Part shown: positions 35,749-64,000 of the stretch, one piece after another
How positions within the stretch are numbered: position 1 is the first letter of the stretch
Layout: each line of letters opens with the position of its first letter
Source: Candidatus Binataceae bacterium
GTDB lineage: Bacteria > Desulfobacterota > Binatia > Binatales > Binataceae
DNA length: 64,000 nt
NCBI GenBank assembly: GCA_035650475.1
Contig: DASRHP010000013.1
Span: 21,755-85,754, forward strand
Direction of reading: 5' to 3'
Notes under the pieces: model-generated
The model's database searches: none
What the model saw: only the letters and a program-made list of their open reading frames with translations
What the model was told of the DNA's origin: nothing
Program-made: the position numbers and the translations under genes

Positions 35749-36899
35749 CGCTCTTCCCCGGCCTGGATGGCCACGACTTCAACGTCGAAGTCGACCGCCT
35801 CCTCGAGCAGGCGCTTGGTGATGTCGCGCCCGAGCAGACGGCGCCACAGCGGCTGATGCGTGCGGCCGAGCACGATCTTGGTGATCCCGTGCGTACGGGC
35901 GAAGTCCAGCAGCGCCTGCGTCACGTTGTCCGATTTAAGCCACACGCTTTCGGCGCCGAGATCGCTGGCGAGGTTGATGTTGTCAAGCAGGGCCACGAAG
36001 TCGCGAGTGCTGATGCGGCTGACCGACTCGGCCGGAGTCTCAACATGCACGGCATACCAGTCGGCGCCAAGCTGGCCGGCGATGCGGCAGGCCTTGCGCA
36101 GCAGCTCGCGCGCGGCGTGCGGATTGGACGATAGCCCGACCATCACCCGCTCGGCCGGCTGGGCGCGGCGTCCGCCCTCGCGCTGGAGCGCCTCGCGATC
36201 CTCGCGCTGGCGGCAGAGCCCGCGCGCGACCTCACGCAGCGCGATCTCGCGCAGCGAGGCCAGGTTGCTGGGCTTGAAAAAGCTGCGCAACGCCTGTTCG
36301 ACCTGCGGCGGCGGGTAGATTTTGCCCTCGCGCAGCCGCTCGCGCAGCGCCTCGGCGGTGATGTCGACATTGACCACCTGGTCGGCGCGGGCTAGAAAGC
36401 TGTCGGGCACGGTCTCACGCACGTCGACCCCGGTGAGCCGCTTCATCAGCGGGTTCAAACTCTCGACGTGCTGGATATTCATCGCAGTGATTACGTTGAT
36501 GCCCGCGGCGAGCAGTTCCTCGACGTCCTGGTAGCGTTTCTCGTGCTTGGAGCCGGGGACGTTGGTGTGCGCAAGTTCGTCGACCACCACGACCTCAGGC
36601 TTGCGCGCCAAAGTCGCGTCCAGGTCCATCTCCTCCACCGTCGTGCCGCGATACTCGACGCGCCGGCGCGGGATCACTTCGAGGTCTCCAACCTTGGTCA
36701 GCGTTTCGGCGCGGCCGTGGGTCTCGATCAGCCCGAGCACCACATCGACGCCGTGCTCGCGGAGTTGATGCGCTTCCTCCAGCATCCGCCAGGTCTTGCC
36801 CACGCCCGCTGCGGCACCGATATAAATCTTGAGCCTGCCCTTCGGCGACTGGGCGACCAGGTCGAGAAATGATTCAGGCTCAGGCCGCTCCTCGTCCAT
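35745..36899 (-). CDS. kdpD: KdpD N-terminal sensor domain plus USP domain protein (stand-alone, no kinase domain)
   Basis: 384 aa. IYIGAAAGVGKTWRMLEEAHQLREHGVDVVLGLIETHGRAET ... MNIQHVESLN matches the KdpD N-terminal (Kdp-sensing) domain, followed by a universal-stress-protein-like domain. No TM or HisKA domains. Confidence 0.85.
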   Translation of the reverse strand: MDEERPEPESFLDLVAQSPKGRLKIYIGAAAGVGKTWRMLEEAHQLREHGVDVVLGLIETHGRAETLTKVGDLEVIPRRRVEYRGTTVEEMDLDATLARKPEVVVVDELAHTNVPGSKHEKRYQDVEELLAAGINVITAMNIQHVESLNPLMKRLTGVDVRETVPDSFLARADQVVNVDITAEALRERLREGKIYPPPQVEQALRSFFKPSNLASLREIALREVARGLCRQREDREALQREGGRRAQPAERVMVGLSSNPHAARELLRKACRIAGQLGADWYAVHVETPAESVSRISTRDFVALLDNINLASDLGAESVWLKSDNVTQALLDFARTHGITKIVLGRTHQPLWRRLLGRDITKRLLEEAVDFDVEVVAIQAGEER

Positions 36900-36928
36900 C
36901 CAGCTTAGTATACGCCGCGCTCGGTCTC

Positions 36929-37513
36929 TCAGCGCTGTCGCTGACCGAGGTGGTCGAGGGCCAGGTTCAGGTCCAGGACGTTGACGCCGGGCTCGCCAAA
37001 CACGCCGGCGAATCGCGGGCGGGTGTGCTCGCGCACGAGACCCTCCACCACGTCAGGGCTCAGGCCGCGCGCTTTAGCGACGCGTGCGACCTGGAGTTGC
37101 GCGTCGGCTGGGCTAATCTCCGGGTCGAGGCCGCTGCCCGAGGCGGTAACCATTCCCGTCGGCACCTGCTGAGGCGTGGCGCCCGGGTTCTCTTCGAGCA
37201 CCTTGTGCAGCGCGTCCCGGACGTCGTCGATGAGCTTGCGGTTGGTCGGGCCGAGGTTGGAGCCGCCCGAGTCGGAAGCGTCGTAGCCCCTGGCGCCGGC
37301 ATCCGAAGGTCGGGGATGGAAGTAGCGCGCCTGGGTGAAGCTCTGGCCGATCAACTCTGAGCCGATTACCTGCCCGCTGCGCACGATGAGGCTGCCATTG
37401 GCCTGCCAGGGGAAGGCAGTCTGCGCGATTACATAGACCGCGAGCGGATAGATGATGCCGGTCACCACCGTCAGCGCTATCACCATCGCGATCGCGGAAA
37501 GCAGCGTGCGCAT
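36929..37513 (-). CDS. kdpC: potassium-transporting ATPase subunit C
   Basis: 194 aa. N-terminal TM, then the KdpC pattern (ASGSGLDP, GLVREHT). Confidence 0.9.
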   Translation of the reverse strand: MRTLLSAIAMVIALTVVTGIIYPLAVYVIAQTAFPWQANGSLIVRSGQVIGSELIGQSFTQARYFHPRPSDAGARGYDASDSGGSNLGPTNRKLIDDVRDALHKVLEENPGATPQQVPTGMVTASGSGLDPEISPADAQLQVARVAKARGLSPDVVEGLVREHTRPRFAGVFGEPGVNVLDLNLALDHLGQRQR

Positions 37514-37524
37514 GTCTCGCTTCC

Positions 37525-39567
37525 TTATGCCAGGTGCAGAGCTGCGACTAGCAAATCAATCGCCTTGATGCCGATGAACGGGATGAGCACGCCGCCCAGG
37601 CCGTAGATGAAGAGGTTGCGGGTCAGGATCGCCGCCGCGCCGAGCGGGCGGTAGGCAACGCCGCGCAGCGCCAGCGGGATGAGCGCGATGATGATCAGCG
37701 CGTTGAAGATGACCGCCGACAGAATCGCGCTCTGCGGAGTTGCCAGGTGCATGATGTTGAGCGACTGGAGTTCGGGATATTCCACCACGAACATCGCCGG
37801 GATGATCGCGAAATACTTGGCGACGTCGTTGGCGATCGAAAAAGTGGTCAGCGCGCCGCGCGTCATCAGAAGCTGCTTGCCGATCTCGACGACCTCCATG
37901 ATTTTGGTCGGGTTGGAGTCGAGGTCGACCATATTGCCGGCCTCGCGCGCGGCCTGGGTGCCGGCGTTCATCGCGACCCCGACGTCGGCCTGCGCCAGCG
38001 CCGGCGCGTCATTGGTGCCGTCACCGATCATCGCGACCAGTTTGCCCTGCGCCTGCTCCTCGCGGATGAGCTGGAGCTTGGTCTCGGGCGTGGCTTCGGC
38101 GCGAAAGTCGTCGACGCCGGCCTCATAGGCGATGGCGGCGGCGGTCAACGGATTGTCGCCGGTGATCATCACCGTACGCATGCCCATCGCGCGCAGGCGG
38201 GCGAAACGCTCGCGGATGCCCTCCTTGATAATGTCTTTGAGGTGAATCACGCCGAGCACGCGCGGGCCGTCGGCGACCACCAGCGGCGTGCCGCCCGCGC
38301 GCGCGATGCGCTCGACGATTCCCGCCAACTCGGGCGGCGCGGCGCCGCCGTTTTCCCTGACGAACTTCACCACTTGGTCGGCTGCGCCCTTGCGTACTCG
38401 GCGGCCGTTGAGGTTCACCCCGCTCATGCGGGTCTGCGCCGAGAACGGGATGAATTCCGCCTCATGCTCGGCGAGTTCGCGTCCGCGGAGGTTGTATTCG
38501 CGCTTGGCCAGCACCATGATCGAGCGGCCCTCCGGCGTCTCGTCGGCGAGCGAGGCCAATTGCGCGGCGTCGGCCAGTTCCTCGATTCGGGTGTCGAGCA
38601 CGGGGATGAACTCGGTTGCCATCCGGTTGCCGAGCGTGATCGTGCCGGTCTTGTCGAGCAGCAGGGTGTCAACGTCGCCGGCCGCCTCGACCGCGCGCCC
38701 TGACATCGCGAGCACGTTGTGCTGAACGAGCCGGTCCATCCCGGCGATGCCGATTGCCGAGAGCAGGCCGCCAATGGTCGTGGGAATCAGGCATACCAGC
38801 AGCGCAACCAGCACCGGCAGCGAAAGCGAGGTTCCGCCGTAGCGCGCGAACGGATAGAGGCTCACGCAGACCAGCATGAAGATGATCGTCAGGCCGGCGA
38901 GCAGGATGCTGAGCGCGATTTCGTTGGGCGTCTTCTGGCGCTGCGCGCCCTCGACCAGGTTAATCATGCGATCGAGGAAGGTCTCGCCGGGGTTGGCAGT
39001 GATGCGCACCTTGATGTGGTCCGAGATAACCGTGGTGCCGCCGGTTACCGCGCTGCGGTCACCGCCGCTCTCGCGAATCACCGGCGCCGATTCGCCGGTT
39101 ATCGCCGCCTCGTTGACCGCCGCGATTCCCTCGATCACTTCGCCGTCGCCGGGAATCATGGCGCCCGCCTCGACCAGCACTATGTCGCCGCGTTTGAGCC
39201 TGGTCGCCGGCACCATCCGCACCGCGCCGTCCTGCCCGACCAGCTTGGCCTGGGTCTCGGTGCGGGTCTTGCGCAGGTTATCGGCTTGCGCCTTGCCGCG
39301 CCCCTCTGCCATCGCTTCGGCAAAGTTCGCAAACCCCACCGCGAACCACAGCCATAGCGCGATTTGAAACTCGAAGAGGGCGAGCCCGAACTGTCCCTCG
39401 AGAAAGTCGCGGATCAGGATCAGGGTGACCGCGGCCGCGGTGACCTCGACCACAAACATCACCGGGTTGCGTAGCTGGATGCGCGGGTCGAACTTGCGCA
39501 TCGAGTTGAACAGCGCGCCCCGCACGATCTGACGGTCCCACAGCGCCGTCGCCTTACGCTCTGCCAT
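37525..39567 (-). CDS. kdpB: potassium-transporting ATPase subunit B (P-type ATPase)
   Basis: 680 aa with DKTGTIT phosphorylation motif, TGDNPLTA and [12 protein letters not shown]. Confidence 0.95.
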
Positions 39568-39613
39568 CGCGATTCACTCCTTGCCCATTACAGGTAGTGC
39601 GCGCGACGCGGCC

Positions 39614-41338
39614 CTAGTAGAGCTTGCCCTTCATCATGACGAGGTGTTCGACGATCGGCCCCAGCGCGTCGACCGGGAAGAACGTCAGCGCGGCGACGAT
39701 CAGGACCACGCCGACCAGCAGCACGACGAAGATCGCGCCATTGGTAGGAAAGGTCCCGGCGCTCGGTGGTACCGCCTTCTTGCCCGCCAGCGACCCGGCC
39801 AGCGCGAGCACCGGGATCTTCATCATGAAACGGCCGAACAGCATCACGAACGCAAGCGTCGAGTTATAGAAGGGGGTGTTCGCATTGAGCCCGGCGAAGG
39901 CCGAGCCGTTGTTGGCTGAGGCCTCGGTGTAGGCGTAGAGAATCTGCGTGAGGCCGTGCGGCCCGGGATTTGTGATCCCGGCAAGGCCAGGCTTGGTCAC
40001 CACGGCGATGCCGGCCAGGATCAAGATCACCGCGGGAAAGATCAGGATGAAGAGCATAGCGAGCTTCATCTCGCGCCCCTCGATCTTCTTGCCCAGGTAC
40101 TCCGGCGTGCGCCCCACCATCAGCCCCGCGATGAACACCGCGAGCACCGCCATCACCAGCATCCCGTAAAGTCCCGAACCGACGCCGCCGAAGATGATCT
40201 CGCCGAGCTGCATGTTGACCAGGGGGACCAGTCCGCCGAGCGGGGTGAAACTGTCGTGCATCGAGTTCACCGCGCCGCACGAGCTGTCGGTAGTGACCGT
40301 CGCCCACAGCGCCGAGTCAACGATGCCGAAGCGCGTCTCCTTGCCCTCCATGTTGCCGCCGCTGTCGCCGGGCGCGGCGGCCTGGCTGATTCCCAGTTTG
40401 GCGAACTCGGGATTGCCCCGTTGCTCGGCCCAAATCGCTGGCGTCACGCCCATCAGAAAGAGGATTGCCATCGCGCCGAACAACGCCCATCCCTGACGCC
40501 GGTCACCCGTCATTTGGCCGAAGGTGTGCGTCAGCGCCGCGCCGATCGCGAAGATCGCCAACAGCTCAATCAAGTCGCTGAGCGGAGTAGGGTTTTCATA
40601 GGGGTGGGCGGCGTTGGCGTTGAAGAAGCCGCCACCGTTGGTCCCGAGTTCCTTGATGATCTCCTGCGAAGCGACTGGACCTTCGGCGATCACCTGCTCG
40701 GCGCCCTCGACGGTCCTTGCATGGACATAAGGGCTAAAGTTCTGCGGCACCCCCTGCCATACCAGCGCCAGCGCGCCGACTAGCGAGATCGGCAGCAGCA
40801 CCCACAGCGTCGCGCGAGTCAAATCGACCCAGAAGTTGCCGATGGTCCTCGCGCCGGAGCGGACGAAGCCGTGGATAACCGCAATCGCGACCGCGATGCC
40901 GGCCGCGGCGGAGACAAAATTGTGAAAGGCGAGCCCGGCCATCTGCGTCAGATAGCTCATCGTGGTTTCGCCGCCGTAGGCCTGCCAGTTGGTATTGGTG
41001 GTGAAGCTTGCCGCCGTGTCGAAAGCGAGATCGGGCGCGACTCCGGCGAAGTGCTGCGGGTTGAGCGGCAGGAACGCCTGCAAGCGCTGCATCGCGTAGA
41101 GCACGATCATTCCGACCATGCTGAACAGCAGCATCGCGATCGCGTACTCCCGCCAAGTCATCTCCGCGCCCGGACGTACGCCGCACAACCGATAGATCAG
41201 GCGTTCGACCGGCTCCAGCATCGGGTCGAGGAAGGTCCGCTCGCGGGCGAACACGCGCGCCATGTAAAGGCCGAGCGGCACGCTTACCGCGGTGACGATA
41301 GCGAGAAAAATCCCCACCTGGAGGACGGCATTCCACAT
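39614..41338 (-). CDS. kdpA: potassium-transporting ATPase subunit A
   Basis: Start taken at the internal ATG (41338, MWNAVLQVGIF...). The upstream 46 codons of the ORF look like non-coding read-through. KdpA-like 10-TM channel subunit. Confidence 0.9.
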   Translation of the reverse strand: MWNAVLQVGIFLAIVTAVSVPLGLYMARVFARERTFLDPMLEPVERLIYRLCGVRPGAEMTWREYAIAMLLFSMVGMIVLYAMQRLQAFLPLNPQHFAGVAPDLAFDTAASFTTNTNWQAYGGETTMSYLTQMAGLAFHNFVSAAAGIAVAIAVIHGFVRSGARTIGNFWVDLTRATLWVLLPISLVGALALVWQGVPQNFSPYVHARTVEGAEQVIAEGPVASQEIIKELGTNGGGFFNANAAHPYENPTPLSDLIELLAIFAIGAALTHTFGQMTGDRRQGWALFGAMAILFLMGVTPAIWAEQRGNPEFAKLGISQAAAPGDSGGNMEGKETRFGIVDSALWATVTTDSSCGAVNSMHDSFTPLGGLVPLVNMQLGEIIFGGVGSGLYGMLVMAVLAVFIAGLMVGRTPEYLGKKIEGREMKLAMLFILIFPAVILILAGIAVVTKPGLAGITNPGPHGLTQILYAYTEASANNGSAFAGLNANTPFYNSTLAFVMLFGRFMMKIPVLALAGSLAGKKAVPPSAGTFPTNGAIFVVLLVGVVLIVAALTFFPVDALGPIVEHLVMMKGKLY

Positions 41339-41361
41339 GATGAGCGGCCTTGCACGCGCGG

Positions 41362-41454
41362 CTAGAAGCGCTCGGGGTGCAGCAGCGCCCAGACCAGGTA
41401 GGCGATCAGAAGGACTGCGCCCACCGAACCCAAGATCAACTCCCAACCGCTCAT
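41362..41454 (-). CDS. kdpF: potassium-transporting ATPase subunit F (KdpF peptide)
   Basis: 30 aa MSGWELILGSVGAVLLIAYLVWALLHPERF, a single TM, ending 24 nt before kdpA. Not in the ORF track (too short). Confidence 0.75.
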   Translation of the reverse strand: MSGWELILGSVGAVLLIAYLVWALLHPERF

Positions 41455-41546
41455 AGCCGGCGGCATCCTTCGACATAGGCGACGCTGATCGCGAAGAAGG
41501 TGACGCTCGCCGCGAGGAAGACTAGATCCAGCATGTCAGCCTTAAA

Positions 41547-52705: not shown

Positions 52706-52905
52706 TTAATCCCTCAGGCACGAGGGCTACGGGAGGCAGCCGTCTCAGGTCTGACACGATTTGGCGTCGTCCGCTGTCGCATGCGGCGTAGGCGGTCAGG
52801 TTTTGCTGTCGGAACAGCTTTTGCGTGAATTCGCTGAGGTTTGCCGCCGGTTTCCACCACTTCCAGCAACATCCATGCGAAGGCGGCTTCGGCTGGCGCA
52901 CTGTC

Positions 52906-55900
52906 ATGGGCGATGAACGAACCTCCACAGCCTCGCTCGAGGTTGGAATGGGCTCGGGAACCGCGGCGGGACGCAGCGGGGCAGGCCGGGTCCTTCTCGA
53001 CTTGCTGCCGGACGCCGCGCTGATTGCCGATCGCAGCGGGACGGTCCTGGCCGCCAACCATAAACTGATTGAGCTGTTTGAGGCCGAAACATCTGAACAG
53101 ATCGTTGGGCGAAAGCTATTCGCGCTCATCGCACCGGAGCAGATGCACGCAGCGATGGGTGCACCACGGAGCTATGGCAGCTCTGTTCACGCCGTGCTTG
53201 ATGCAACAACGCTAAAGGGGAATCCGCTCAGTGTTGAAATCTTCGATCTGCCGTTAGTTACGGATTCCGGTCAGCCCGAATGCATCCTGAGCCTCGCGCG
53301 CGACGTCAGCGCACGCAAGCGCGCCGAGCGCGAGCAGGCGCTGCTCGCCGCGATCGTGCAGAGCGCCGATGCGGCCATTCTCAGCATCACGTTGGACTTT
53401 CGCATCGCGAGCTGGAACGCCGCGGCGGAAAAGCTGTTCGGCTATACGGCCGAGGAAGCCATCGGCCGCCAGCCTACCGAGTTGGTCGTGTTTGCGGCGG
53501 ACAAGGAGCGCGCTTTCACACAGTTCGCCGCCGACGTCGAAGAGTTTCTTCGGGGCAAGCGCGAGGCGCACTATTTTGAGGAAACGCTGCGCCGCAAAGA
53601 CGGCGGTCCGCTTCTCGTGTCGTTCATCGTCTCCGGCGTCTATGACGGCAACGCGGAACTCATCGGCGTGTCGGTCATCGTGCGTGACATTACGGAACAG
53701 AAACGGGCGGAGAGCGCGCGCGCTCGGCTCGCTACAATCGTGGAAGCTTCCGACGACGCGATAATCGGTGTTACCTCCGACTTCCGCGTTGCGACCTGGA
53801 ACCGTGGTGCGCAAAAACTGCTGGGCTTCACCGCCGAGGAGGCGATCGGTCAATCGTGCGATATTTTCATACCATCCGACCAACTCGGTCGCGCCCATGC
53901 CATGTTCGTTTCGGTCGCCGAGCAACCCGACCATGTGCTGCGGTTCGAGGCGCGGTTGCGGCGCAAGGGCGGGGACGAGGTAGAGGCCTCGGTGGTGGCG
54001 GCCGAAGTCCAGGGTGCGGGCGCCGAGATAAGCCAGTCGGTAATCATGCGCGATATCACCGAGCGGCGGCGTGCCGAACGCGAGCAGGCGCTGCTCGCCG
54101 CGATTGTCGAGTCCTCCGGCGACGCTATCGTAAGCGTTGCCCTCGACGGCACCATCACGAGTTGGAACCCTGGGGCTGAAAAACTTTTCGGTTTCACCGC
54201 CGGTGAGGCGGTCGGGAAACCACTGACCATTTTTGTTCCAGCCGATCAACAGGAGCGTACCGCGCGCGTGATTGAAGAGCTCCGGACCCACCCCGGGCGC
54301 GCAATCAGCTTCGAGGCGCCCAATCTCAGGAAGGACGGCAGTCGGATCGAAACCGCGATGACGGTTTTCGGCACCTACGGCCGCGACGGCAGGTTGCTCG
54401 GCATTGCCTCAATCCATCGCGACGCCACCGAGCGGCGGCGTGCCGAACGCGAGCGGGCCCTGCTTGCCGCGATCGTTGAGTCCTCTGAGGACGCCATCAT
54501 CAGCATCGACACCGAGCTGCGCATCACGAGCTGGAACAAGGGCGCCCAAAGGCTGTTCGGATTCACCGCCGAGGAAGCGCTCGGCCGGCCCTTCACGCTG
54601 TTCGTCCAGCCCGAGCGGCGCCAGTATGCCGTCGAGGGCGCTCGACGGAGCCAACGCGGCCTCGTCGAGGTAACCGGACTGGAAGTGAACTGCCAACGCA
54701 AAGACGGCAGCGTAATCGAGGTCTCAATCACCGCCTCGCCCGTCTACGGCCCCGGCGGCGAGGTGATCGGCCAGTCGGCGATCATGCACGACATAACCGA
54801 GCGCAAGCGCGCCGAGCGCGCCCTAATTGCCGCGCAGCGCGAGCTGCGCGCACGGCTCAACCAGCAGGGGGTGGTCGCCCGTCTGGGCCAGCGCGCACTG
54901 GAGCAGATCGATCCGGTCAAGCTGATGGAGGAGGCGGCAGTGTTGCTCGCCGAGACGCTCGGCGTCGAGCGCTCGGCGATTTTCGAGCTTCAGCCGGGGG
55001 GCAAGTCGCTGCTGCTGCGCGCGGGCTACGGCTGGGAGGCGGGCGCGATCGGGCAAGCGACGATGGATGCCGACAAGCAGACCTTGGTCGGTTACACGCT
55101 GGCGGCCAAGGCGCCAGTGGTAGTGAGCGACTTCGGCGCCGAAACCCGCTTCCACCGCGGCCGGCTGGTTGGCGCCGAGGGCGCGGCCAGCGCGCTGGCG
55201 GTGGTGGTCTCCTTCGACGGCGAGCCCTGGGGCGTGCTGGTGGTAGAGAGCAGGGCCACGCGTGAGTTCAACCACGACGACGTCAACTTCGTCCAGGCGC
55301 TCGCCCATATTCTCGCCGAGGCGCTGGTCCGCCAGCGCGCCGAGCAGGAGCTGCGCGCCGCGCGCGACGCCGCACTGGAGTCGGCGCGCGCCAAGTCGGC
55401 CTTCCTTGCCGCGATGAGCCACGAGATTCGCACTCCGCTCAACTCGATCGTCGGCCTTATCGGTCTGCTACTCGACACCCCGCTTACGGCCGAGCAGCGC
55501 GACTTTATGCAGAATATCCTCGCCAGCAGCGATGCCCTGCTCAGCATCATCAACAACGTGCTCGACTTCTCGCGGCTCTCGGCCGGCAAGGTCGTGCTCG
55601 AGGAAATCGAATTCGACCCGCGCGCGGTAACCGAAGGCGCGGCCGACATGGTGGCCGAGACGGCGCAGCGCAAGGGGTTGGAGCTTGCGGTCTCGATCGA
55701 TGAGCGGGTTCCCGCCCGGCTGCGCGGCGACCCTGCGCGTCTGCGCCAGATCCTGATCAACTTGCTCGGCAATGCGGTCAAGTTCACCGAGAAAGGGGAA
55801 GTCGTGGTGCGGGTGAGCCTGGAGAGCGAAACCGACACCACCGCGCATCTGCGCTTTTCGGTCACCGACACCGGCATCGGCATCTCCGAGGAGATGCAGC

Positions 55901-57399
55901 GCATCCTGTTTCGGCCCTTCTCGCAGGCGGACACTTCAACCACGCGCAAGTACGGCGGCACCGGGCTCGGCCTTGCGATCTCTTCGCAGCTGGCCGAGCA
56001 GATGGGCGGCAAGATCGGGGTGAGCAGCCGCCCCGGCCAGGGATCGACTTTCTGGTTCACCGCCGACTTCGCAAAGACGGCGGCAAGCGAGACCCCTCAG
56101 AGCGGCGAGCGCGAGCTCGAGGGCCTGCACGTCCTGATCGTGGACGACAACGCGACCAACCGCTGGATTCTCAGGCATCACGTCGAGTCATGGGGAATGC
56201 GAGCCGACGCGGTGGCAAGCGGTGCCGAAGCACTCGACCTTGTCCGCGACCGCGCGGCCAGTGACCCTTACGCAATCGTCCTGCTCGATTACTTCATGCC
56301 CGAGATGGACGGGCTCGAGCTCGCCAATCGCATCAAGGCCGACCCCGCCAACGCCGACGTGCATCTGGTGATAATGTCTTCGGCGGGGCGGCCGCGCGAG
56401 TTCGGCGCCCGCGCGACGCCGATCGAAGCCTGGCTAACCAAGCCAGTCAAATCGGGGCAGCTCTTTAAGTGCCTCACCGCGCTCCCGCCCCACGACGGTG
56501 AGCGGCCCAGGCGTGCACCTGCGCCGGCCACGCTCACGCCCGCCGAACGTGCGTCTGCAGCGGTCGCGCCGGCCAAGGCGGCGGAGACCGCTGCTCCCGC
56601 GGGCGGCCGCATCCTGCTGGTCGAGGACAATCCGATCAACCAAAAAGTGACGCTCGCTCAGCTGAAGCGGCTCGGCTACGAGGCCGACGGCGCCTCCAAC
56701 GGGCGCGAGGCGCTCCAGGCCATCGAAAGGACGGCCTACGACGCGGTCCTGATGGATTGCCAGATGCCCGAGATGGACGGTTATGAGGCGACTCGCGAGC
56801 TGCGCCGGCGTGAGGCGGGTAAGCGCCATACGGTGGTCATAGCGATGACCGCCTATGGCTTGGCAGGGGACCGCGAAAAGTGCCTGGCTGCCGGGATGGA
56901 CGACTACATCGCCAAACCGGTGCGCAAGGAGCAACTTGCCCAAATACTTCAACGCTGGCTTGCTCCCAAGCCGCAGTCTGCGGTGGCGACCCCGGCCGCT
57001 CCGGCCGGCGCACCCGGCGCCGACGGCGAGGCGCTGTTCGACGTCGCGGTGCTTGGCGCGCTGCGCGGCGAAGGTAAAGAGTTTTTCACTGAACTCACCG
57101 AGATGTTCAACGCCGAAGTGCCAGCGTCGCTCGGCCAGCTCGCCGAGGCGTTCGCCAAGGGCGACGCCGGGGCAGTAGCGACTGTCGCATACCGGATCAA
57201 GGGGGCGGCGGCGATCTTCGGGGCGCGCCGGATGCAGGAGCAGGCCGCTGCGATCGAACAGACGGCGCGCGCGGGTTCGATGGAGTTGGCAGCCACCATG
57301 ATGGAAGAGCTGCGCGCCGAGTTCGAACGGGTGCGGGCGGTCCTTCAGTCCGAGTGCGCCAAGCCCGCTACGCCGACCGACGCGGCGCAATCAAACTGA
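52906..57399 (+). CDS. hybrid sensor histidine kinase (PAS x5, GAF, HisKA, HATPase, REC, REC, HPt-like)
   Basis: ATG 52906 (ORF opens at 52825). Four near-identical PAS modules each introduced by R(K/R)RAERE(Q/R)ALLAAIVES. GAF domain, H-box AMSHEIRTPLNS, two receiver domains with DD...D...K, and a C-terminal HPt-like domain. Confidence 0.88.
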   Translation: MGDERTSTASLEVGMGSGTAAGRSGAGRVLLDLLPDAALIADRSGTVLAANHKLIELFEAETSEQIVGRKLFALIAPEQMHAAMGAPRSYGSSVHAVLDATTLKGNPLSVEIFDLPLVTDSGQPECILSLARDVSARKRAEREQALLAAIVQSADAAILSITLDFRIASWNAAAEKLFGYTAEEAIGRQPTELVVFAADKERAFTQFAADVEEFLRGKREAHYFEETLRRKDGGPLLVSFIVSGVYDGNAELIGVSVIVRDITEQKRAESARARLATIVEASDDAIIGVTSDFRVATWNRGAQKLLGFTAEEAIGQSCDIFIPSDQLGRAHAMFVSVAEQPDHVLRFEARLRRKGGDEVEASVVAAEVQGAGAEISQSVIMRDITERRRAEREQALLAAIVESSGDAIVSVALDGTITSWNPGAEKLFGFTAGEAVGKPLTIFVPADQQERTARVIEELRTHPGRAISFEAPNLRKDGSRIETAMTVFGTYGRDGRLLGIASIHRDATERRRAERERALLAAIVESSEDAIISIDTELRITSWNKGAQRLFGFTAEEALGRPFTLFVQPERRQYAVEGARRSQRGLVEVTGLEVNCQRKDGSVIEVSITASPVYGPGGEVIGQSAIMHDITERKRAERALIAAQRELRARLNQQGVVARLGQRALEQIDPVKLMEEAAVLLAETLGVERSAIFELQPGGKSLLLRAGYGWEAGAIGQATMDADKQTLVGYTLAAKAPVVVSDFGAETRFHRGRLVGAEGAASALAVVVSFDGEPWGVLVVESRATREFNHDDVNFVQALAHILAEALVRQRAEQELRAARDAALESARAKSAFLAAMSHEIRTPLNSIVGLIGLLLDTPLTAEQRDFMQNILASSDALLSIINNVLDFSRLSAGKVVLEEIEFDPRAVTEGAADMVAETAQRKGLELAVSIDERVPARLRGDPARLRQILINLLGNAVKFTEKGEVVVRVSLESETDTTAHLRFSVTDTGIGISEEMQRILFRPFSQADTSTTRKYGGTGLGLAISSQLAEQMGGKIGVSSRPGQGSTFWFTADFAKTAASETPQSGERELEGLHVLIVDDNATNRWILRHHVESWGMRADAVASGAEALDLVRDRAASDPYAIVLLDYFMPEMDGLELANRIKADPANADVHLVIMSSAGRPREFGARATPIEAWLTKPVKSGQLFKCLTALPPHDGERPRRAPAPATLTPAERASAAVAPAKAAETAAPAGGRILLVEDNPINQKVTLAQLKRLGYEADGASNGREALQAIERTAYDAVLMDCQMPEMDGYEATRELRRREAGKRHTVVIAMTAYGLAGDREKCLAAGMDDYIAKPVRKEQLAQILQRWLAPKPQSAVATPAAPAGAPGADGEALFDVAVLGALRGEGKEFFTELTEMFNAEVPASLGQLAEAFAKGDAGAVATVAYRIKGAAAIFGARRMQEQAAAIEQTARAGSMELAATMMEELRAEFERVRAVLQSECAKPATPTDAAQSN

Positions 57400-57455
57400 G
57401 GACTGAGCGCTGCCGCGAGCCGATTTGCGGCCGCGGAGCGGCAGGCAGCAGCGTG

Positions 57456-57489
57456 CCCGGCGCATCCGCCCTCGCGAGGGTGCGCCGGG
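57456..57489. terminator. nested palindrome between convergent genes (possible bidirectional terminator)
   Basis: CCCGGCGCA-tccg-CCCTCGCGAGGG-TGCGCCGGG. Confidence 0.3.
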
Positions 57490-57544
57490 GCACATCGTTT
57501 CTCCAGTTGGACTCTGCGCGATCGTAGGACCGCGCCGCCCCCGG

Positions 57545-57763
57545 TCACTTGCCGCCGGCGGTCGCGCCGTGACGGCGGCTGATGCCGTTGTCGTGGTTGA
57601 ACAGAAGCCCAGCGGCCAACAGGCCCACCCCGAGCATCGTGAGCAGCACGAGCAGAAACGGCGGTGCCACTCCGAGCCGGACGAAGAAGCCGAAACTGAT
57701 TACGAAGGCAAGCATCACGGCCCCTAAGACCACGGCGATGTTTGCGTATCGAGCGCCTTCCAT
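57545..57763 (-). CDS. small two-TM membrane protein (hypothetical)
   Basis: 72 aa. ATG after a GGGAGA RBS. Two hydrophobic helices. Confidence 0.45.
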   Translation of the reverse strand: MEGARYANIAVVLGAVMLAFVISFGFFVRLGVAPPFLLVLLTMLGVGLLAAGLLFNHDNGISRRHGATAGGK

Positions 57764-58883
57764 CTGAAGATTCTCCCTTTTCGAAAGGATTCTGTAATCG
57801 TGTTGAGAGCACGCGCTGTGCCAGCGCGGCGCAGCCACGTACCGCTCGTCAAGCTAGCGGTGGACTGCACCAATGTGCCTGTCATTGCTCGTCGATGGTT
57901 CGCAGACGCCCCGTTGTTCGCATCACCGCGGTGATGCGGGTCCGTCCGTCGCGGAATCGCTCAGCAACGCGAACGCCTGTGTCTGAGACACTTGGGCCGT
58001 CTCACGCTGCGGCATTCGGGCTGCGCTTTGGAGCAAACGGAAGCTGGGAGCGGAAGTGCGATGCAGGCGCGATGAAAATGCGCGCGCTACGCGATGTGGC
58101 AGGGGCAATGGCAGGCGCTGCTCGCGCATCGCCCGTGCCCGCCTGTGACACATTCGATCGTGCGCGCCGCGGGTTCGCCCACGGCCGCCCTTTCTCCTGC
58201 CGACGGGTAATTCGATGAGAAGAGCCTACCCACCAGCCTGGCCGAACGGCGCGCCCACTGCGAGGTCGATAGTCGCGGCGGCAACGCTCTAAGCCAAGTC
58301 CTCAGGTCCGAGGCTTCGTCGGCGCTGGCGGCCGAAGGCGGGTTGGGGATCGCATTAGCTCGAAGATCGCGATCTCTCATGGAGCCAACTCTACGCTATT
58401 CAGGTCAGCAACGAAACCAAATTTCATCGCGCACTGATCCTGATGTCAACAATGCGTGTCATCAAAACGTGTGCGCGACCGCCAATGCCACGCGACCTTA
58501 AGCCTGGGTCGTCAAAAGTTGTGCATAGAAGAGCATGACGCGGCGTCCGCTGAATTACCGCGCAATATGCTTCCCAAATCGGCGCGGGGGCTCGGCTGTC
58601 GTGCGTGCGTTCTTGAAACGCATGCCGGGGGTCCCCCTCTTAACGAACTAACGCCCCCAGCATGCTTCCAAGATCCGTCGCCGGCGACATCGATCACGGA
58701 GCGCCACTCCGGCAGAGCAAAAACGTTGCCGACGAAGGGGCCAGCTAGTCGCAGTCTGAAATTCCGTAGTTTGCGTGGGCGATTCGTTGCGCCGCGGTCG
58801 TCCTCGCCAGATGAGGCGCTAATGTCGGTTTGCGCTCAGCCGATAACTTTTCGTCGAAGTGCCAATCAAACTTAGCGCAATTG

Positions 58884-58911
58884 TTGCACAGGCTGGTCTG
58901 CGCCTGTGCAA
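58884..58911 (-). terminator. hairpin 47 nt downstream of the CheB-like gene
   Basis: TTGCACAGGC-N8-GCCTGTGCAA, a perfect 10 bp stem. No clear U-tract. Confidence 0.3.
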
Positions 58912-58956
58912 CGCCGGCAGGGGCGGACCAAACACGGCGGCGGGGCCGGACCAAAC

Positions 58957-59991
58957 CTAGCGCGCGATGGCGGCGCCGAGTTTGCGCACGGGGGGCCGGC
59001 CGTTGAGCGCCAACCGCCGAATGAACGGCGCAAGCTCCAGCTCGGGGATTACATGGTCAACCGCCCCGGTTGCGATCGCCGCCGCCGGCATCGCGCCGTA
59101 CGCCAGCCCTTCGGGCGAAAGCGCGATGGTCAGGCCCCCCATCTGATGCACCACGCGTATTCCATCGGCGCCGTCCTGCCCGGCGCCACAGAGGATGATC
59201 GCTGCCAGGTGGCGCCCGAAGGCCTGTGCGGCTGAACGGAACAGCACGTCGATCGATGGTTTGGCAAAGTGTTCCGGGGGTTGGTCGCTCAGCGCCAGCC
59301 GCCGCCGTTCGACCGTAAGGTGCGCGTTGGGAGTCGCGATGTAAGCATAGCCGAGATAAAGTGGCGCGCCCTGCATGCCGGGGGCGATGTGCATCCCCGA
59401 ATGGCGAGCCAAGATGGCCGGAAGGACGCTGGGGCCGGTGCGTCCAAGATGCTGGACGACGACCAGCGTGACCGGCAGCTCGGCGTCCAGCTGCGGCATC
59501 AGGTCGGTGAGCACTCCGAGGCCGCCAGCTGAGGCGCCGATGACGATAATGTCGATACGCCGGCGCTCCCAGCGTCGAAGCTGCTCGACGATGACCTCGC
59601 TTAATCGGTCCATCGTCGCATTGACGAATATCGCTGATTCCGTCTTGCTGCCGGTAGGGAGGAAGGCTTCCAGCGTGCGCCGCCAGATATCCATTACGTC
59701 GCGCGCCTCGCGCTCGGAAGCGCCCGCCAGCGCGCCCGCGACCACCTGCTTGCGCGCGCCCGCGGTCAGCGGCGCGAGCGCGCCGCTGTACAGCGAGGCC
59801 AGGAACAATTCGAGGAAGCTTGACGACTCGCTGTGCAGGCGATCGGGCGCCGAGCGGCGACGAATGTCGGGCAGTCCGCTGCCGATCGCGCTGGCGATAA
59901 GCAGATGCTGGTTCTGGCGCAGAAACTCGCCCAGGTCCGGCGGCGGCGAGTAAAAGCTGTGTACGGGATGTCGGCCGAGCCTTTCTTTCAC
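58957..59991 (-). CDS. CheB-type protein-glutamate methylesterase domain protein (no receiver domain, unknown N-terminal domain)
   Basis: C-terminal 190 aa match the CheB catalytic domain (IGASAGG, VVVQHLG, GAGQDGADG). N-terminal about 150 aa unassigned. Confidence 0.75.
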   Translation of the reverse strand: MKERLGRHPVHSFYSPPPDLGEFLRQNQHLLIASAIGSGLPDIRRRSAPDRLHSESSSFLELFLASLYSGALAPLTAGARKQVVAGALAGASEREARDVMDIWRRTLEAFLPTGSKTESAIFVNATMDRLSEVIVEQLRRWERRRIDIIVIGASAGGLGVLTDLMPQLDAELPVTLVVVQHLGRTGPSVLPAILARHSGMHIAPGMQGAPLYLGYAYIATPNAHLTVERRRLALSDQPPEHFAKPSIDVLFRSAAQAFGRHLAAIILCGAGQDGADGIRVVHQMGGLTIALSPEGLAYGAMPAAAIATGAVDHVIPELELAPFIRRLALNGRPPVRKLGAAIAR

Positions 59992-60140
59992 GGGTCCGCC
60001 TCGCTTCGGGAATGCCTCTGTGGGCGGCCGCCGCCCGGGGACCTCTGTATGCCGCCCGTCCGCGCCGGACGTTGCAGCACCGACAGACCGCTTCTATGAT
60101 TAGGCAGCCTTGAGCCTTTGGGGGGGCGCTCGCAGCCGCC

Positions 60141-62078
60141 GTGGCAGTAAAGACTAGCACATTGCCCCGCACTGAAGTGCAACAGGTGCTCAACCTGCTG
60201 CGGCAAGCCCGCAACCTCGATTTCAGCGGCTACAAGCGTTCGACCCTCCACCGCCGCATCGAGCATCGGATGCGCGAGCGGCGCTGCGTCAAGGTCGAGG
60301 ACTACTGCGAGATTCTGCAGCGCGAGCCGGCTGAGGCCGACGCGCTGGTTTCCGCCCTCTTGATCAAGGTGACCGAGTTCTTCCGCGATCCGCCCTTATG
60401 GGAGAAGCTGCGCAAGCACGTCTTGCCCGAATTGCTGGCCCGTGCCGCCGCCAACGGCGAGATGCGAGTGTGGAGCGCGGGCTGCGCTACCGGCGAAGAG
60501 GCGTATTCGATCGCGATGGTGTTGGCCGAACTGACGGCGGCGAACAGCGCCAGCGTGCCCTTCCGGATCTTCGGCACCGACCGCGACGCCGGCGCGATCG
60601 CGACCGCGCGGCGGGGAGTGTACACCCAGCAGCAGATCCGTACTCTGCCCGCGCGCCTGCTCGAGCGCTGGTTCGAGCGGGTGCCGGAGGGCTACCTGGT
60701 GCGCAAGGACCTGCGCCGCTACCTGGTCTTCGGCGTCCACGACGTCGTCAACGACGCGCCCATCTCGCGTCTGGACCTGATCCTGTGCCGCAACCTGTTT
60801 ATCTACCTTGACGCCGCCGCGCAGCGGCGCGCGCTGCTCCATTTCCATCACGGACTCAAGCATGATGGCGTTCTGGTACTGGGTAAGTCGGAGCTGATCC
60901 CGTTTGCCGAGAAGCTGTTCGCGCCGGCTGATCTGCCCTCGCGGATCTACCGCAAGCTTGCCTATCAGGCGCGACAGGCGGAGTATCCGTTTACCCTGCC
61001 GGCCGCGCCGCGCGAGCCGGCGGCCAAGGAGAAATTGCCGATTCTGCCGCCCGCAATTACGCCGTTCTACCGCGACGCGCTGATGGCGCTCGACGTTGCG
61101 GTGGTGGTGCTCAACAGGGACGGCGTGGTCACGGTGTGGAACGAGGCCGCCGCCCGCTTGTGGGGTCGGCGCGAGTCCGACGTTATTGGCCGTCCGTTGA
61201 GCGAGGTTAAATGGGAGGACAACAGCGCGGGGCAGCGTCTGCTCGAGCGCGCGGCCACAATGCGCGCGGTGCGCGGTCATGTCGCCCAGGAGACGTTCAC
61301 TCTGGACGGCGAACGTCCACGCACTATCCGGCTCGAAATCAGCCCGCTACGCAGCGGCGAGCATCAAGAGCCCAATGGCTTCGTTTTCATGGCGCGCGAC
61401 ATCACGGACCTCCAGGACGCACTCTCGGGCCTGCGCCAGGCCGAGGAGCGTCAGCGCGAGGCTACCTCCAAGTACCAGGCGGCGATCGACGAACTGCAAT
61501 CGACCAACGAGGAGCTCGAAACCACCAACGAGGAACTGCAGTCGGCCAACGAAGAGCTCCAGACCACCAACGAGGAACTGCAATCGACCAACGAGGAACT
61601 GGAGACCATCAACGAAGAGCTCCAATCCACTAACGCCAGCCTCGACGCGGTCAACACCGAGCTGGCTGCGCGCACTGAAGAGCTCAATCGGGTCAACCTT
61701 GCCCAGCGCGCGATGATTCGCGCGCTCTCTGCGGCGATCGTGGGGGTTGACAGCCAGGGCCAGATCACGATCTGGAACCCGGCGGCCGAGCGGATGCTCA
61801 ACCGCAGTGAGGAGCAGCTACGCAATCACAATCTCCAGCGGCTGTCGCTGGCGCCACTGCCGCGTGCGGTCGCCGCGCGGATCAAGCGTGCGCTGTTGCG
61901 CAAGGCCGCGCTCAATATCGAAGGCTTCGATTGCAGGCTCAACGGCCGCAACGTCAAACTGCGGTGCAGCCTGATACCCCTGAGCAACCAGGAGGCGCAT
62001 TACGGAGCGATGCTGATTCTGGAGCCTGCGCGCAACCAGCTGGCGGCAGAGTCCGCCCAGCGGCGCAAGCGCGTATAG
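60141..62078 (+). CDS. CheR-type methyltransferase fused to PAS, heptad coiled-coil, PAS
   Basis: CheR N- and SAM-binding domains (VWSAGCATGEEAYS, DLILCRNLFIY), a PAS domain, 7x ELQSTNE heptads, and a second PAS domain. Confidence 0.85.
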   Translation: MAVKTSTLPRTEVQQVLNLLRQARNLDFSGYKRSTLHRRIEHRMRERRCVKVEDYCEILQREPAEADALVSALLIKVTEFFRDPPLWEKLRKHVLPELLARAAANGEMRVWSAGCATGEEAYSIAMVLAELTAANSASVPFRIFGTDRDAGAIATARRGVYTQQQIRTLPARLLERWFERVPEGYLVRKDLRRYLVFGVHDVVNDAPISRLDLILCRNLFIYLDAAAQRRALLHFHHGLKHDGVLVLGKSELIPFAEKLFAPADLPSRIYRKLAYQARQAEYPFTLPAAPREPAAKEKLPILPPAITPFYRDALMALDVAVVVLNRDGVVTVWNEAAARLWGRRESDVIGRPLSEVKWEDNSAGQRLLERAATMRAVRGHVAQETFTLDGERPRTIRLEISPLRSGEHQEPNGFVFMARDITDLQDALSGLRQAEERQREATSKYQAAIDELQSTNEELETTNEELQSANEELQTTNEELQSTNEELETINEELQSTNASLDAVNTELAARTEELNRVNLAQRAMIRALSAAIVGVDSQGQITIWNPAAERMLNRSEEQLRNHNLQRLSLAPLPRAVAARIKRALLRKAALNIEGFDCRLNGRNVKLRCSLIPLSNQEAHYGAMLILEPARNQLAAESAQRRKRV

Positions 62079-62186
62079 CGACCGGCGGGAACTGGACCCG
62101 TGGCGGTCGCGCGCGGCAGAGCGAGCAAACAGAACCAATGGCCGGAGGGCGAGCGCCAGCGCTGGCCGCAGCCTGCCTGGCCGCGG

Positions 62187-62879
62187 ATGATTCGCCAGAT
62201 TCCGCGCCTGCGCGATCTTCCGGCCGCCACGCTCGATACCCTGGGGCGCGAGCTCGAATTCCGCATTATCGCGCCGCGTCAGGTCCTGTTCTTCGAAAAC
62301 GAAATTACCTACGACGTCTATATCGTCCTGAGCGGGCTTGCCACGATGACTTACCTGGACGCGCGTGCGCGGCGCGTCCTGCTCGAAGTCTTGGGGCCGG
62401 GCGACCTCGTGGGCGACCTGCCGTTCATGCCCGAGCCCCTGCGCGGACGGCTGCGCTGCGACGCTTTGCACGAGTGCGCGATGGGCAAGATCGACTGCCG
62501 GCGGCTGGTCGAGATCCTCTTCGGGATGCCGTTTGAGCGGCTGGCGCACGCCAGCGCCTTTCTCTTTGGCGCCTGGCCGGAGCGGCTCGCGCGCGCCGCG
62601 CTGGTGCGCGGCTGGCCGCTGCGCGAGCGCCTGCTGGGCACGATTTCCTATGTGGCGCGCAGGTTCGGGGTGCAGGATGAAACCGGCAGCATCGTAAACC
62701 TGCCGCTTACCCATGCCGACCTTGCCGACCTCGTGGGCGCATCGCGCCCCAAGGTTTCCCATCACATGCGTCTGCTCGAGAAGCAGGGGCTGCTCGTCCA
62801 TGAACGCCACCGCATAATCCTGCCTTCGTCCGCAAAGCCGGCTACCGGGCACTCCGGCGGCGCACCCTCACGCTCCTAG
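62187..62879 (+). CDS. Crp/Fnr family transcriptional regulator
   Basis: cNMP-binding domain plus C-terminal HTH (ADLVGASRPKVSHHMRLLEKQG). ATG 62187 preferred over the ORF-track start 62100. Confidence 0.8.
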   Translation: MIRQIPRLRDLPAATLDTLGRELEFRIIAPRQVLFFENEITYDVYIVLSGLATMTYLDARARRVLLEVLGPGDLVGDLPFMPEPLRGRLRCDALHECAMGKIDCRRLVEILFGMPFERLAHASAFLFGAWPERLARAALVRGWPLRERLLGTISYVARRFGVQDETGSIVNLPLTHADLADLVGASRPKVSHHMRLLEKQGLLVHERHRIILPSSAKPATGHSGGAPSRS

Positions 62880-62915
62880 CATCCAGACTTTTCGCTGTCC
62901 TATTTCTGTCAGATT

Positions 62916-62936
62916 GTTACAAAATTGTTTTGTAAC
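62916..62936. promoter_or_regulatory. perfect 21-nt palindrome GTTACAAAA-TTG-TTTTGTAAC (operator-like)
   Basis: In the AT-richer spacer between the crp-family gene and the PAS kinase gene. Further GTGAC-containing palindromes nearby (GGTGACTCACC at 63006-63016). Confidence 0.4.
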
Positions 62937-63296
62937 GTTTTGACACACGAGAGCTTCCGTTTTTCATTGAATGTCACACCGCTATAAGTAGGTGACAGCA
63001 CCCGAGGTGACTCACCAAAGTGACGGAAGTAATTAGAGTATCGATGTGATACCGATCCAGCTTCCTTGCAGGGGCGGTGCGGCGTGAACTCCCCATCGCG
63101 ACGTGCCGCCCCTATTTGTCCCGGCTTCAACCGCGTGCCCGGGGGGAAGCCAGAAAGAGTTATTGGGGGGAAGGTCACAAAAGGGGTGAGAGCTGCCCGG
63201 TGCCGGGCGACGGTCGGCCGTGCATGACTAGCAAGGGCCGATCGAGTATGCGCCGGCGAACCCGGGTCGCAGGGCGGTAAATCCGTTAAGCGCGTC

Positions 63297-64000
63297 ATGC
63301 CTTATCAGGCATATTTCAATTCGGCCTCTGAGGGCTTAATCATCGTCGATCGCGAGGGGCGCATCGTCGATCTTAACGCCGCTTGCGAGCGGATGTTCGC
63401 GTACTCGCGCGACGAGCTTATCGGGCAACCGATCGAGCTCCTGGTGCCCGAGCCTTCGCGCCGACAGCACTGCAGCCATCGCCAGGACTTCTTTCGCGCG
63501 CCGCGCAGCCGGCCGATGGGAATCGGGCTCAATCTTGCTGCGCGCCGCAAAGATGGCAGCGAATTTCCGGTGGAAGTCAGCCTGACCTACACGCAGGAAA
63601 TAGTGCGCGGCGGCTTGGTGGTGGCCGCGCTGACCGACATCACCGAGCGCCTTGCGCTCGAGCGCGAGGCGCGGCGGGCGGAAACCCTGGCCTCGCTAGG
63701 GACGATGGCGGTGGGCATCGCGCACGACCTCAACAACCCGCTCAGCGTGATACTCGCCCGCGCCGAACTCCTGTTGGCGACGCCGCCGGAGGCGCTGGGA
63801 CGCGCGCAGATCGAGGACGATCTCGTGGTGATCCGGCGGCAGGCTGAGCGGGCCGCGCGTATCGTAGAGCAGTTTCTCGAGCTCGCGCGGGCGGGCTCGA
63901 GGTCGCCCGCGCCGCTCAACCTCAACCACCTGGTCGAGCGCGTTTTGCTCCTGTTTGGCGAACAGCTACGCAAGGGCGGCATCGATGTCCGTGCCGACCT
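63297..64000 (+). CDS. PAS-domain sensor histidine kinase (3' end outside window)
   Basis: Manual translation: MPYQAYFNSASEGLIIVDREGRIVDLNAACERMF ... (PAS), then the HisKA H-box GIAHDLNNPLSVI. No stop before the window end. Not in the ORF track. Confidence 0.75.
   Translation, partial: MPYQAYFNSASEGLIIVDREGRIVDLNAACERMFAYSRDELIGQPIELLVPEPSRRQHCSHRQDFFRAPRSRPMGIGLNLAARRKDGSEFPVEVSLTYTQEIVRGGLVVAALTDITERLALEREARRAETLASLGTMAVGIAHDLNNPLSVILARAELLLATPPEALGRAQIEDDLVVIRRQAERAARIVEQFLELARAGSRSPAPLNLNHLVERVLLLFGEQLRKGGIDVRAD

Follow-up and report, generated by a model that had tools for sequence, protein, structure and literature searches.

A receiver-less CheB with a predicted globin-like N-terminal domain next to a CheR-PAS protein with a conserved acidic coil: a candidate chemoreceptor-independent glutamate-methylation module in a Candidatus Binataceae bacterium

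The stretch of DNA analyzed here (hereafter the window) comprises 64,000 nucleotides (64 kb) of contig DASRHP010000013.1 from a Candidatus Binataceae bacterium, a soil organism. It is high-GC DNA (about 65-70% GC) and carries at its right end a group of genes for proteins of the type of the chemotaxis adaptation enzymes CheB and CheR. A CheB-like gene is divergently oriented from a gene for a CheR methyltransferase fused to PAS domains (hereafter CheR-PAS), which is followed by genes for a Crp/Fnr-type regulator and a PAS histidine kinase (Table 1). An earlier description of this DNA, made from the letters and hereafter called the original prediction, had placed all four genes where the list of open reading frames (ORFs) has them. 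Its divergent arrangement of the CheB-like and CheR-PAS genes, its order of CheR, PAS, sevenfold heptad coil and PAS in the latter, and its Crp-family regulator and PAS histidine kinase downstream were all borne out by ORF coordinates, Pfam and Tandem Repeats Finder (TRF). As judged from the sequences, the assignment of the locus to a widespread non-chemotaxis CheB/CheR-PAS module, of which it would be a variant with both enzymes probably catalytically competent, is well supported.

Table 1. Features at and near the CheB-like/CheR-PAS locus (positions in the window)
Feature	Position	Strand	Description	Evidence
Hybrid kinase gene	52825-57399		1524 aa; five PAS, GAF, HisKA, HATPase, two receivers, Hpt	Pfam
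Hairpin	58883-58912	-	perfect 11-bp stem; 45 nt downstream of the cheB-like stop codon	inverted-repeat scan
CheB-like gene	58957-59991	-	344 aa	ORF list
CheB methylesterase/deamidase catalytic domain	58957-59553	-	residues 147-344 and stop	Pfam, Foldseek, triad alignment
N-terminal domain of CheB-like protein	59554-59991	-	residues 1-146, in place of receiver domain; all-helical, predicted globin-like	AlphaFold2, Foldseek
Divergent intergenic region cheB-like/cheR-PAS	59992-60140		149 bp	ORF coordinates, sequence
CheR-PAS gene	60141-62078	+	645 aa; divergent from the CheB-like gene	ORF list, Pfam
Acidic heptad coil	61479-61700	+	residues 447-520; putative methyl-accepting segment	TRF, alignment, composition
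Crp/Fnr gene	62100-62879	+	259 aa	Pfam
Palindrome GTTACAAAATTGTTTTGTAAC	62916-62936		perfect, 21 nt, AT-rich; 37 nt after the crp stop, before the PAS kinase	sequence scan
PAS-HisKA kinase gene	63297-64000	+	ATG at 63297; N-terminal 234 aa only, cut by the window end	Pfam (PAS_9, PAS, HisKA)

The only Pfam domain of the CheB-like protein was CheB_methylest (PF01339; residues 149-322, 156.3 bits versus a cut-off of 24) and no match to Response_reg was found in it, in agreement with its earlier description as a receiver-less CheB. The Ser-His-Asp triad, on which that description depended, is present as Ser154, His181 and Asp273; S154 and H181 were invariant and D273 nearly invariant in 19 homologues, and the motifs GASAGG, QH and GQDG bearing these residues were aligned to GASTGG, QHM and GNDG of the solved CheBs 6ymz and 7esg. 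Foldseek gave TM-scores (TMt) of 0.89-0.92 for the catalytic domain against the CheB structures 3sft and 1chd. An NCBI entry with the name "chemotaxis protein CheB" matches the protein at 100% identity. The NCBIfam CheB subfamily score of the protein, 129, was below the cut-off of 342.

In the CheR-PAS protein, Pfam detected CheR_N (PF03705; residues 13-63, 54.6 bits) and CheR (PF01739; residues 77-263, 178.5 bits; cut-off 27 for each), followed by two PAS stretches and generic coiled-coil matches, and no match to MCPsignal (PF00015), the kinase-control domain of methyl-accepting chemotaxis proteins (MCPs). The closest solved sequences to its CheR half were the CheR of B. subtilis (5ftw) and that of Salmonella (1af7, 1bc5). 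The S-adenosylmethionine (SAM)-binding motif WSAGCATGEEAYS is conserved, and both this motif and CRNLFIY align to 5ftw and 1bc5, while the NCBIfam CheR equivalog score was 112, below the cut-off of 435. More than 8000 homologues of CheR-PAS were retrieved at E<=1e-10, typically of ~650-670 aa. The best 120 of them all had the same architecture, came mostly from Myxococcota-like metagenomic bins and were 43-52% identical to the window protein outside its close relatives, and the name given by JGI to most homologues is "two-component system CheB/CheR fusion protein". The CheR-PAS half is an ordinary member of a known and already catalogued class, KEGG K13924 ('two-component system, chemotaxis family, CheB/CheR fusion protein'), which comprises CheB-CheR-PAS-coil-PAS proteins with or without an HWE/HisKA kinase as well as split forms. 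Common to this class and the window are the CheR_N-CheR-PAS-heptad coil-PAS core (43-52% identity over the full length), a nearly invariant ELQSxNEEL coil and a receiver-less CheB catalytic domain. Unlike in K13924, the CheB of the window is a separate gene on the opposite strand (a fused CheB was also absent from the closest 120 CheR-PAS homologues); it bears a predicted globin-like N-terminal domain, whereas the K13924 CheB is bare (~195 aa), fused to CheR or tailed by a C-terminal zinc ribbon; and the gene after CheR-PAS encodes a Crp/Fnr regulator, not a histidine kinase.

Each of the two enzymes has an intact catalytic domain whose nearest structures are those of chemotaxis CheR or CheB, which would fit ordinary chemotaxis enzymes acting on transmembrane or soluble MCPs encoded elsewhere, with the PAS and globin-like domains only tuning their activity. 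We regard this explanation as quite improbable. When Pfam was run on all ORFs supported by third-position GC bias (GC3) across the 64 kb, no MCPsignal, CheW or CheA-type domain was found, just as the original prediction had it for the window, and the only Hpt domain belonged to the hybrid PAS/GAF kinase (Table 1); nor was any MCP, CheA or CheW found in about 12 related neighbourhoods. Moreover, the CheB is devoid of the receiver that couples CheB to CheA, both enzymes score far under the NCBIfam cut-offs (129 vs 342 for CheB and 112 vs 435 for CheR), and the genes conserved next to them belong to two-component kinases or regulators rather than to the che set.

The CheB with this N-terminal domain (hereafter NTD-CheB) adjoined a CheR-PAS-coil-PAS gene in every independent context (8/8: the window, L001, L003, L008/L009, L012, L015, the P0254 contig and P0257). 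The two genes are divergent in the window and in L001 (80% identity), and co-directional in L003, L004 and L005 (42%), L008 and L009 (45%), L012 (41%), L015 (40%) and the P0254 contig; in P0257 they are joined in one 998-aa ORF, the junction of which looks like a frameshift and probably is one. This co-occurrence of the N-terminal domain with CheR-PAS, together with the about 12 neighbourhoods lacking MCP, CheA and CheW, supports the original assignment to a non-chemotaxis CheB/CheR-type module. A second CheB paralogue, made of a catalytic domain and a C-terminal helical or zinc-ribbon tail, was also observed near NTD-CheB in L008 (1007-1834), L009 (7101-7673), L015 (849-1847) and the P0254 contig; since this applies to several NTD-CheB loci, one CheR-PAS may be served by two differently regulated esterases.

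The gene following CheR-PAS was of variable kind. The window and L007 have a Crp/Fnr regulator there. In L003 it codes for a receiver alone, in L012 for a hybrid of kinase and receiver, on the P0254 contig for a protein of the order REC-GAF-kinase-REC and in L011, L013 and L014 for a HATPase kinase with an overlapping start codon, and a plus-strand kinase-like match occupies this place in L006 (a 294-aa gene call on the minus strand there is probably spurious). The usual neighbour of the class is an overlapping histidine kinase, for which Crp is an unusual substitute. The Crp protein was identified by cNMP_binding (PF00027; 36.5 vs 27.5) and HTH_Crp_2 (PF13545; 43.5 vs 27), and reached no NCBIfam equivalog cut-off. 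Between the stop of cheR-PAS and the start of crp there are 21 nt, and the two genes share a reading frame: the TAG of cheR-PAS is at 62076-62078, the crp frame is open from 62079 and its first start is GTG at 62100. In L007, whose Crp and CheR-PAS are 45% and 52% identical to their window counterparts, crp begins within cheR-PAS in a different frame, so the shared frame in the window is probably a coincidence and not read-through. Among the relatives, the kinases after CheR-PAS in L011 (6967-8199), L012 (7166-8866), L013 (6979-8268) and L014 (7112-8428) have in common, ahead of the HisKA box, a PAS-like region and a conserved N-terminal helix (..KY..L..KYAALV.RLE..), and this shared part could be a surface that reads the coil; no kinase with such a helix is present in the window.

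The N-terminal domain of the CheB-like protein had been put forward as a novel domain of about 150 aa. In terms of sequence this stands, as a Pfam search relaxed to E<=10 found nothing for residues 1-146 in the 10 homologues examined, and a profile of the domain gave no meaningful match to PDB sequences. It is nevertheless a genuine conserved domain, common to ten full-length homologues (37-89% identical) and marked by the motifs GL..R.RS.P.RL..E...F, G.xA.A and WR. The fold is predicted to be globin-like. AlphaFold2 confidently modelled six to seven helices with a predicted local distance difference test score (pLDDT) of 87 and a predicted TM-score (pTM) of 0.81-0.86, for the domain alone and within the full protein, and the top-50 matches of this model in a Foldseek search of PDB all had the globin fold (TM 0.43-0.67, probability 0.82-1.00, with weak E-values of 0.04-0.4). 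Among these were the RsbR_N non-haem globin (2bnl, TMt 0.65-0.68), BpeGReg (6m9a, 0.60) and Vitreoscilla haemoglobin (3tm9, 0.67), and others were allophycocyanins, smURFP, DosC and pXO2-61. No His or Cys is conserved in the domain among 19 sequences, so a haem or bilin cofactor is unlikely. The likeness to globin-coupled and non-haem sensor globins (RsbR 2bnl, BpeGReg 6m9a, DosC 4zvb, pXO2-61 3pmc) lies in a predicted all-helical globin-like N-terminal domain preceding a signalling output domain; unlike in these, the sequence resembles that of no globin family, a proximal His is not conserved, and the output domain is a CheB methylesterase.

The domain is also rare. An exhaustive profile search over 1.84 billion cluster representatives returned 22 proteins or clusters, nearly all of ~340 aa and of the same two-domain architecture. 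A scan of GTDB species representatives found no relative of either the domain or the full CheB-like protein, and a metagenome scan for NTD-CheB found two loci only (L008 and L009). Other CheB proteins of ~345 aa that appeared in the homology search were ruled out as carriers of the domain, as in them the catalytic domain comes first and is followed by a zinc-ribbon or helical tail at the C-terminus.

The coil between the two PAS domains of CheR-PAS consists of seven near-identical heptads (N-E-E-L-Q/E-S/T-T/A) followed by three degenerate ones. The sevenfold repeat of the original prediction is real at the DNA level, where TRF reported 7.1 copies of a 21-nt unit (61487-61635, period 21) with 70% DNA matches. 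In a full-length alignment of 117 homologues (~45% identity), the coil was the best-conserved part of the protein: the mean frequency of the commonest residue was 0.92 for residues 447-520 (82% of columns >=90% conserved), compared with 0.76 for the CheR catalytic domain (42%) and 0.63-0.69 for the PAS domains (23-30%). All seven heptad positions are fixed, which includes the surface positions beyond the core. Since the DNA copies have diverged (only 70% alike), this conservation indicates selection on the peptide. Within the 52 residues from 447 to 498 there are 16 acidic and 0 basic ones. A homology search with the coil by itself mostly returned short fragments and was uninformative on architecture.

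The coil was also compared with the methylation helices of E. coli Tar. The pattern [EQ][EQ]xx[AST][AST] matches Tar at 294, 301, 308 and 490 only, and within these pairs lie the Tar methylation sites Q295, E302, Q309 and E491. In CheR-PAS, the same pattern occurs at 457, 464, 471, 478 and 492, all within the coil and in heptad register, and nowhere else in the 645 aa; the background in the other window proteins is 12 matches in 17,694 residues (0.68 per 1000 aa). The stacked heptads also look alike (Tar EQQASAL / EETAASM / EQLTATV, coil EELQSTN / EELETTN / EELQSAN). Because this Tar-type site pattern is repeated in heptad register, we read the coil, by analogy, as a possible built-in methyl-accepting helix. 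The resemblance to the canonical CheR/CheB and MCP systems of E. coli and Salmonella (PDB 1af7, 1bc5, 1a2o, 1chd) comprises, besides the catalytic folds and residues, the heptad-spaced EE/EQ-xx-small-small pattern of the Tar methylation helix. Unlike in those systems, CheB has no receiver, CheR is fused to PAS-coil-PAS, no MCPsignal, CheA or CheW is encoded nearby, the putative acceptor is on the methyltransferase's own polypeptide, and the core position of the heptad is Asn, not a hydrophobic residue.

Alternatively, the coil could be only a dimerisation or signal-transmitting helix, with CheR and CheB acting in trans on the output protein encoded next to CheR-PAS, which is Crp in the window and a kinase elsewhere, or on another target. 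Signalling proteins often have coiled linkers between their PAS domains, an output protein is nearly always encoded after CheR-PAS, often with overlapping stop and start codons, and the fixed Q or E of each heptad fits a specific packing or binding surface. We still consider this alternative unlikely. The downstream partner varies between Crp, REC alone, HisKA kinases and hybrid kinases, and because its kind varies, a single methyl-acceptor conserved among the partners is unlikely. Further points against it are that the coil is nearly invariant at all seven heptad positions and matches the Tar site pattern in register, and that its purely acidic nature disfavours stable homodimer packing unless it is neutralised.

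As for the N-terminal domain of CheB, it may replace the receiver as the regulator of the enzyme, either as a sensor or in another manner. One such manner, compatible with methylation of the coil, would be that the domain docks the substrate or is auto-inhibitory, its conserved Arg residues binding the acidic coil in the way that the receptor pentapeptide tethers canonical CheB and CheR. The domain is rich in Arg at conserved positions (R44, R51 and R104 in 19 sequences; R46, R105, R129, R140, R144 and R145 in a closer set), basic residues are absent from the partner coil, the domain offers no conserved His or Cys to hold a haem or bilin, and it is found almost only fused to CheB and beside CheR-PAS-coil-PAS. 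On the other hand, the closest folds (the RsbR N-terminal domain, globin-coupled sensors and pXO2-61) are sensor or regulatory modules, and the overall charge is only slightly positive (21 K/R vs 17 D/E). We give docking tentative credit as a serious possibility, somewhat short of a probable one.

With moderate confidence, we propose that the locus encodes a soluble, chemoreceptor-independent module of reversible glutamate methylation that is built of chemotaxis adaptation enzymes. In this module, the CheR domain would methylate glutamates with SAM, the likeliest substrate, which would be the non-MCP target presumed in the original prediction, being the EE pairs of its own acidic heptad coil or of that of its dimer partner. 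The coil, situated between two PAS domains, mimics the heptad-spaced methylation pattern of chemoreceptor helices. The divergently encoded CheB would strip the methyl groups; it has no phospho-receiver, the usual gate of CheB, and the rare, probably non-haem globin-like domain found instead may sense a signal or dock the enzyme on its substrate. Methylation would neutralise the segment of 16 acidic and 0 basic residues, and could thus alter how the coil packs and how the PAS domains lie relative to each other. This state would be relayed to a partner, which may be the co-transcribed Crp/Fnr regulator and possibly the downstream PAS kinase in the window, and the overlapping histidine kinase in most relatives. 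A more far-reaching version, which we think rather unlikely, would make it a self-contained cytoplasmic methylation memory, where CheR marks its own MCP-like acidic zipper, the globin-coupled non-haem CheB erases the marks upon a second signal, and a transcription factor or kinase, not CheA, performs the readout.

Several observations weigh against a methylation module of this kind. At chemoreceptor methylation sites E and Q interchange freely, whereas at the fourth position of the coil heptads, any given heptad keeps either Q or E throughout the homologues. Its seventh position, which belongs to the core, is Asn, an unusual choice where chemoreceptors have a hydrophobic residue. Instead of accepting methyl groups, the coil might serve as a conserved interaction surface or as a signalling helix. 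Regarding CheB, the globin assignment comes from a predicted structure, with the weak Foldseek E-values given above and TM-scores of 0.5-0.67. The link to Crp was seen at two loci only (the window and L007), and L007 has no CheB within 8 kb. The negative results for MCPs cover the 64-kb window, which is only part of the genome, and the ~12 related neighbourhoods. Finally, no functional study of the CheR-PAS-coil-PAS class and no biochemical evidence of methylation for any member was found in the literature searched; one candidate study, PMC2829493, turned out to concern cheR-cheB gene order only, and the literature on motility in Binatia proved uninformative.

Other features of the locus were also recorded. 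Sequence scans of the divergent intergenic region revealed no sigma-70-like promoter match and no inverted repeat, the idea of a GTGAC/GTCAC operator was left without support on scanning, and an Rfam scan of 57300-64000 gave no credible RNA family. The hairpin downstream of the CheB-like gene (Table 1) is a possible terminator, and a 23-nt direct repeat lies at 58911-58956, just downstream of the same gene. The palindrome GTTACAAAATTGTTTTGTAAC is unique in the window (0/100 shuffles) and sits within a longer imperfect inverted repeat of 18+18 nt (62907-62945) in the 417-bp spacer between crp and the PAS-HisKA kinase gene. It was not found in the related loci, and could be either the terminator hairpin of the cheR-crp unit or an operator before the PAS kinase.

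On the other side of the CheB-like gene, the 1.5-kb stretch 57400-58956 contains no GC3-supported ORF, several GC-rich inverted repeats and, on the minus strand at 57545-57838, a possible 97-aa two-helix membrane protein. Beyond this stretch, 1.5 kb from the CheB-like gene, lies the hybrid kinase gene, which has a syntenic counterpart, split into two gene calls, in the close relative L001. The remaining genes of the window serve housekeeping and metabolism (NusA, IF-2, TruB, RND efflux, Kdp ATPase, protocatechuate dioxygenase and others). The Kdp locus (32627-41521) encodes KdpA, KdpB and KdpC, then a separate 435-aa protein with KdpD-sensor and Usp domains, and next to these a separate PAS-HisKA-HATPase kinase and a sigma-54 REC-AAA-HTH_8 regulator. 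The usual regulatory layout of Kdp is one KdpD kinase with an OmpR-type KdpE, so that of the window is unusual.

What is understood of reversible glutamate methylation of the CheR/CheB type concerns chemoreceptors almost exclusively. In soil and sediment bacteria the PAS-linked CheB/CheR class is very abundant, numbering thousands of homologues, and it is annotated by domain names only. While the CheR-PAS half of the present locus is already catalogued, three elements of the locus are new: a CheB with a predicted globin-like domain in place of the receiver, which is rare and confined to few lineages, a Crp regulator in the output position, and the proposal of the coil as substrate. No description of a globin combined with a CheB methylesterase was found in the literature searched, and we know of no such combination of a globin-like domain with this enzyme. 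The locus adds two informative variants to the class, namely a rare globin-like domain as the putative gate of CheB and a Crp-type regulator at the usual place of the kinase, and the coil as a built-in methylation helix is a substrate hypothesis testable for the class as a whole. If the methylation memory were true, it would amount to chemotactic adaptation without a receptor and would give sensor globins a new class of output; and if the coil is indeed the methyl acceptor, methylation of the adaptation type would be a signalling device of general use in the cytoplasm that feeds into transcription.

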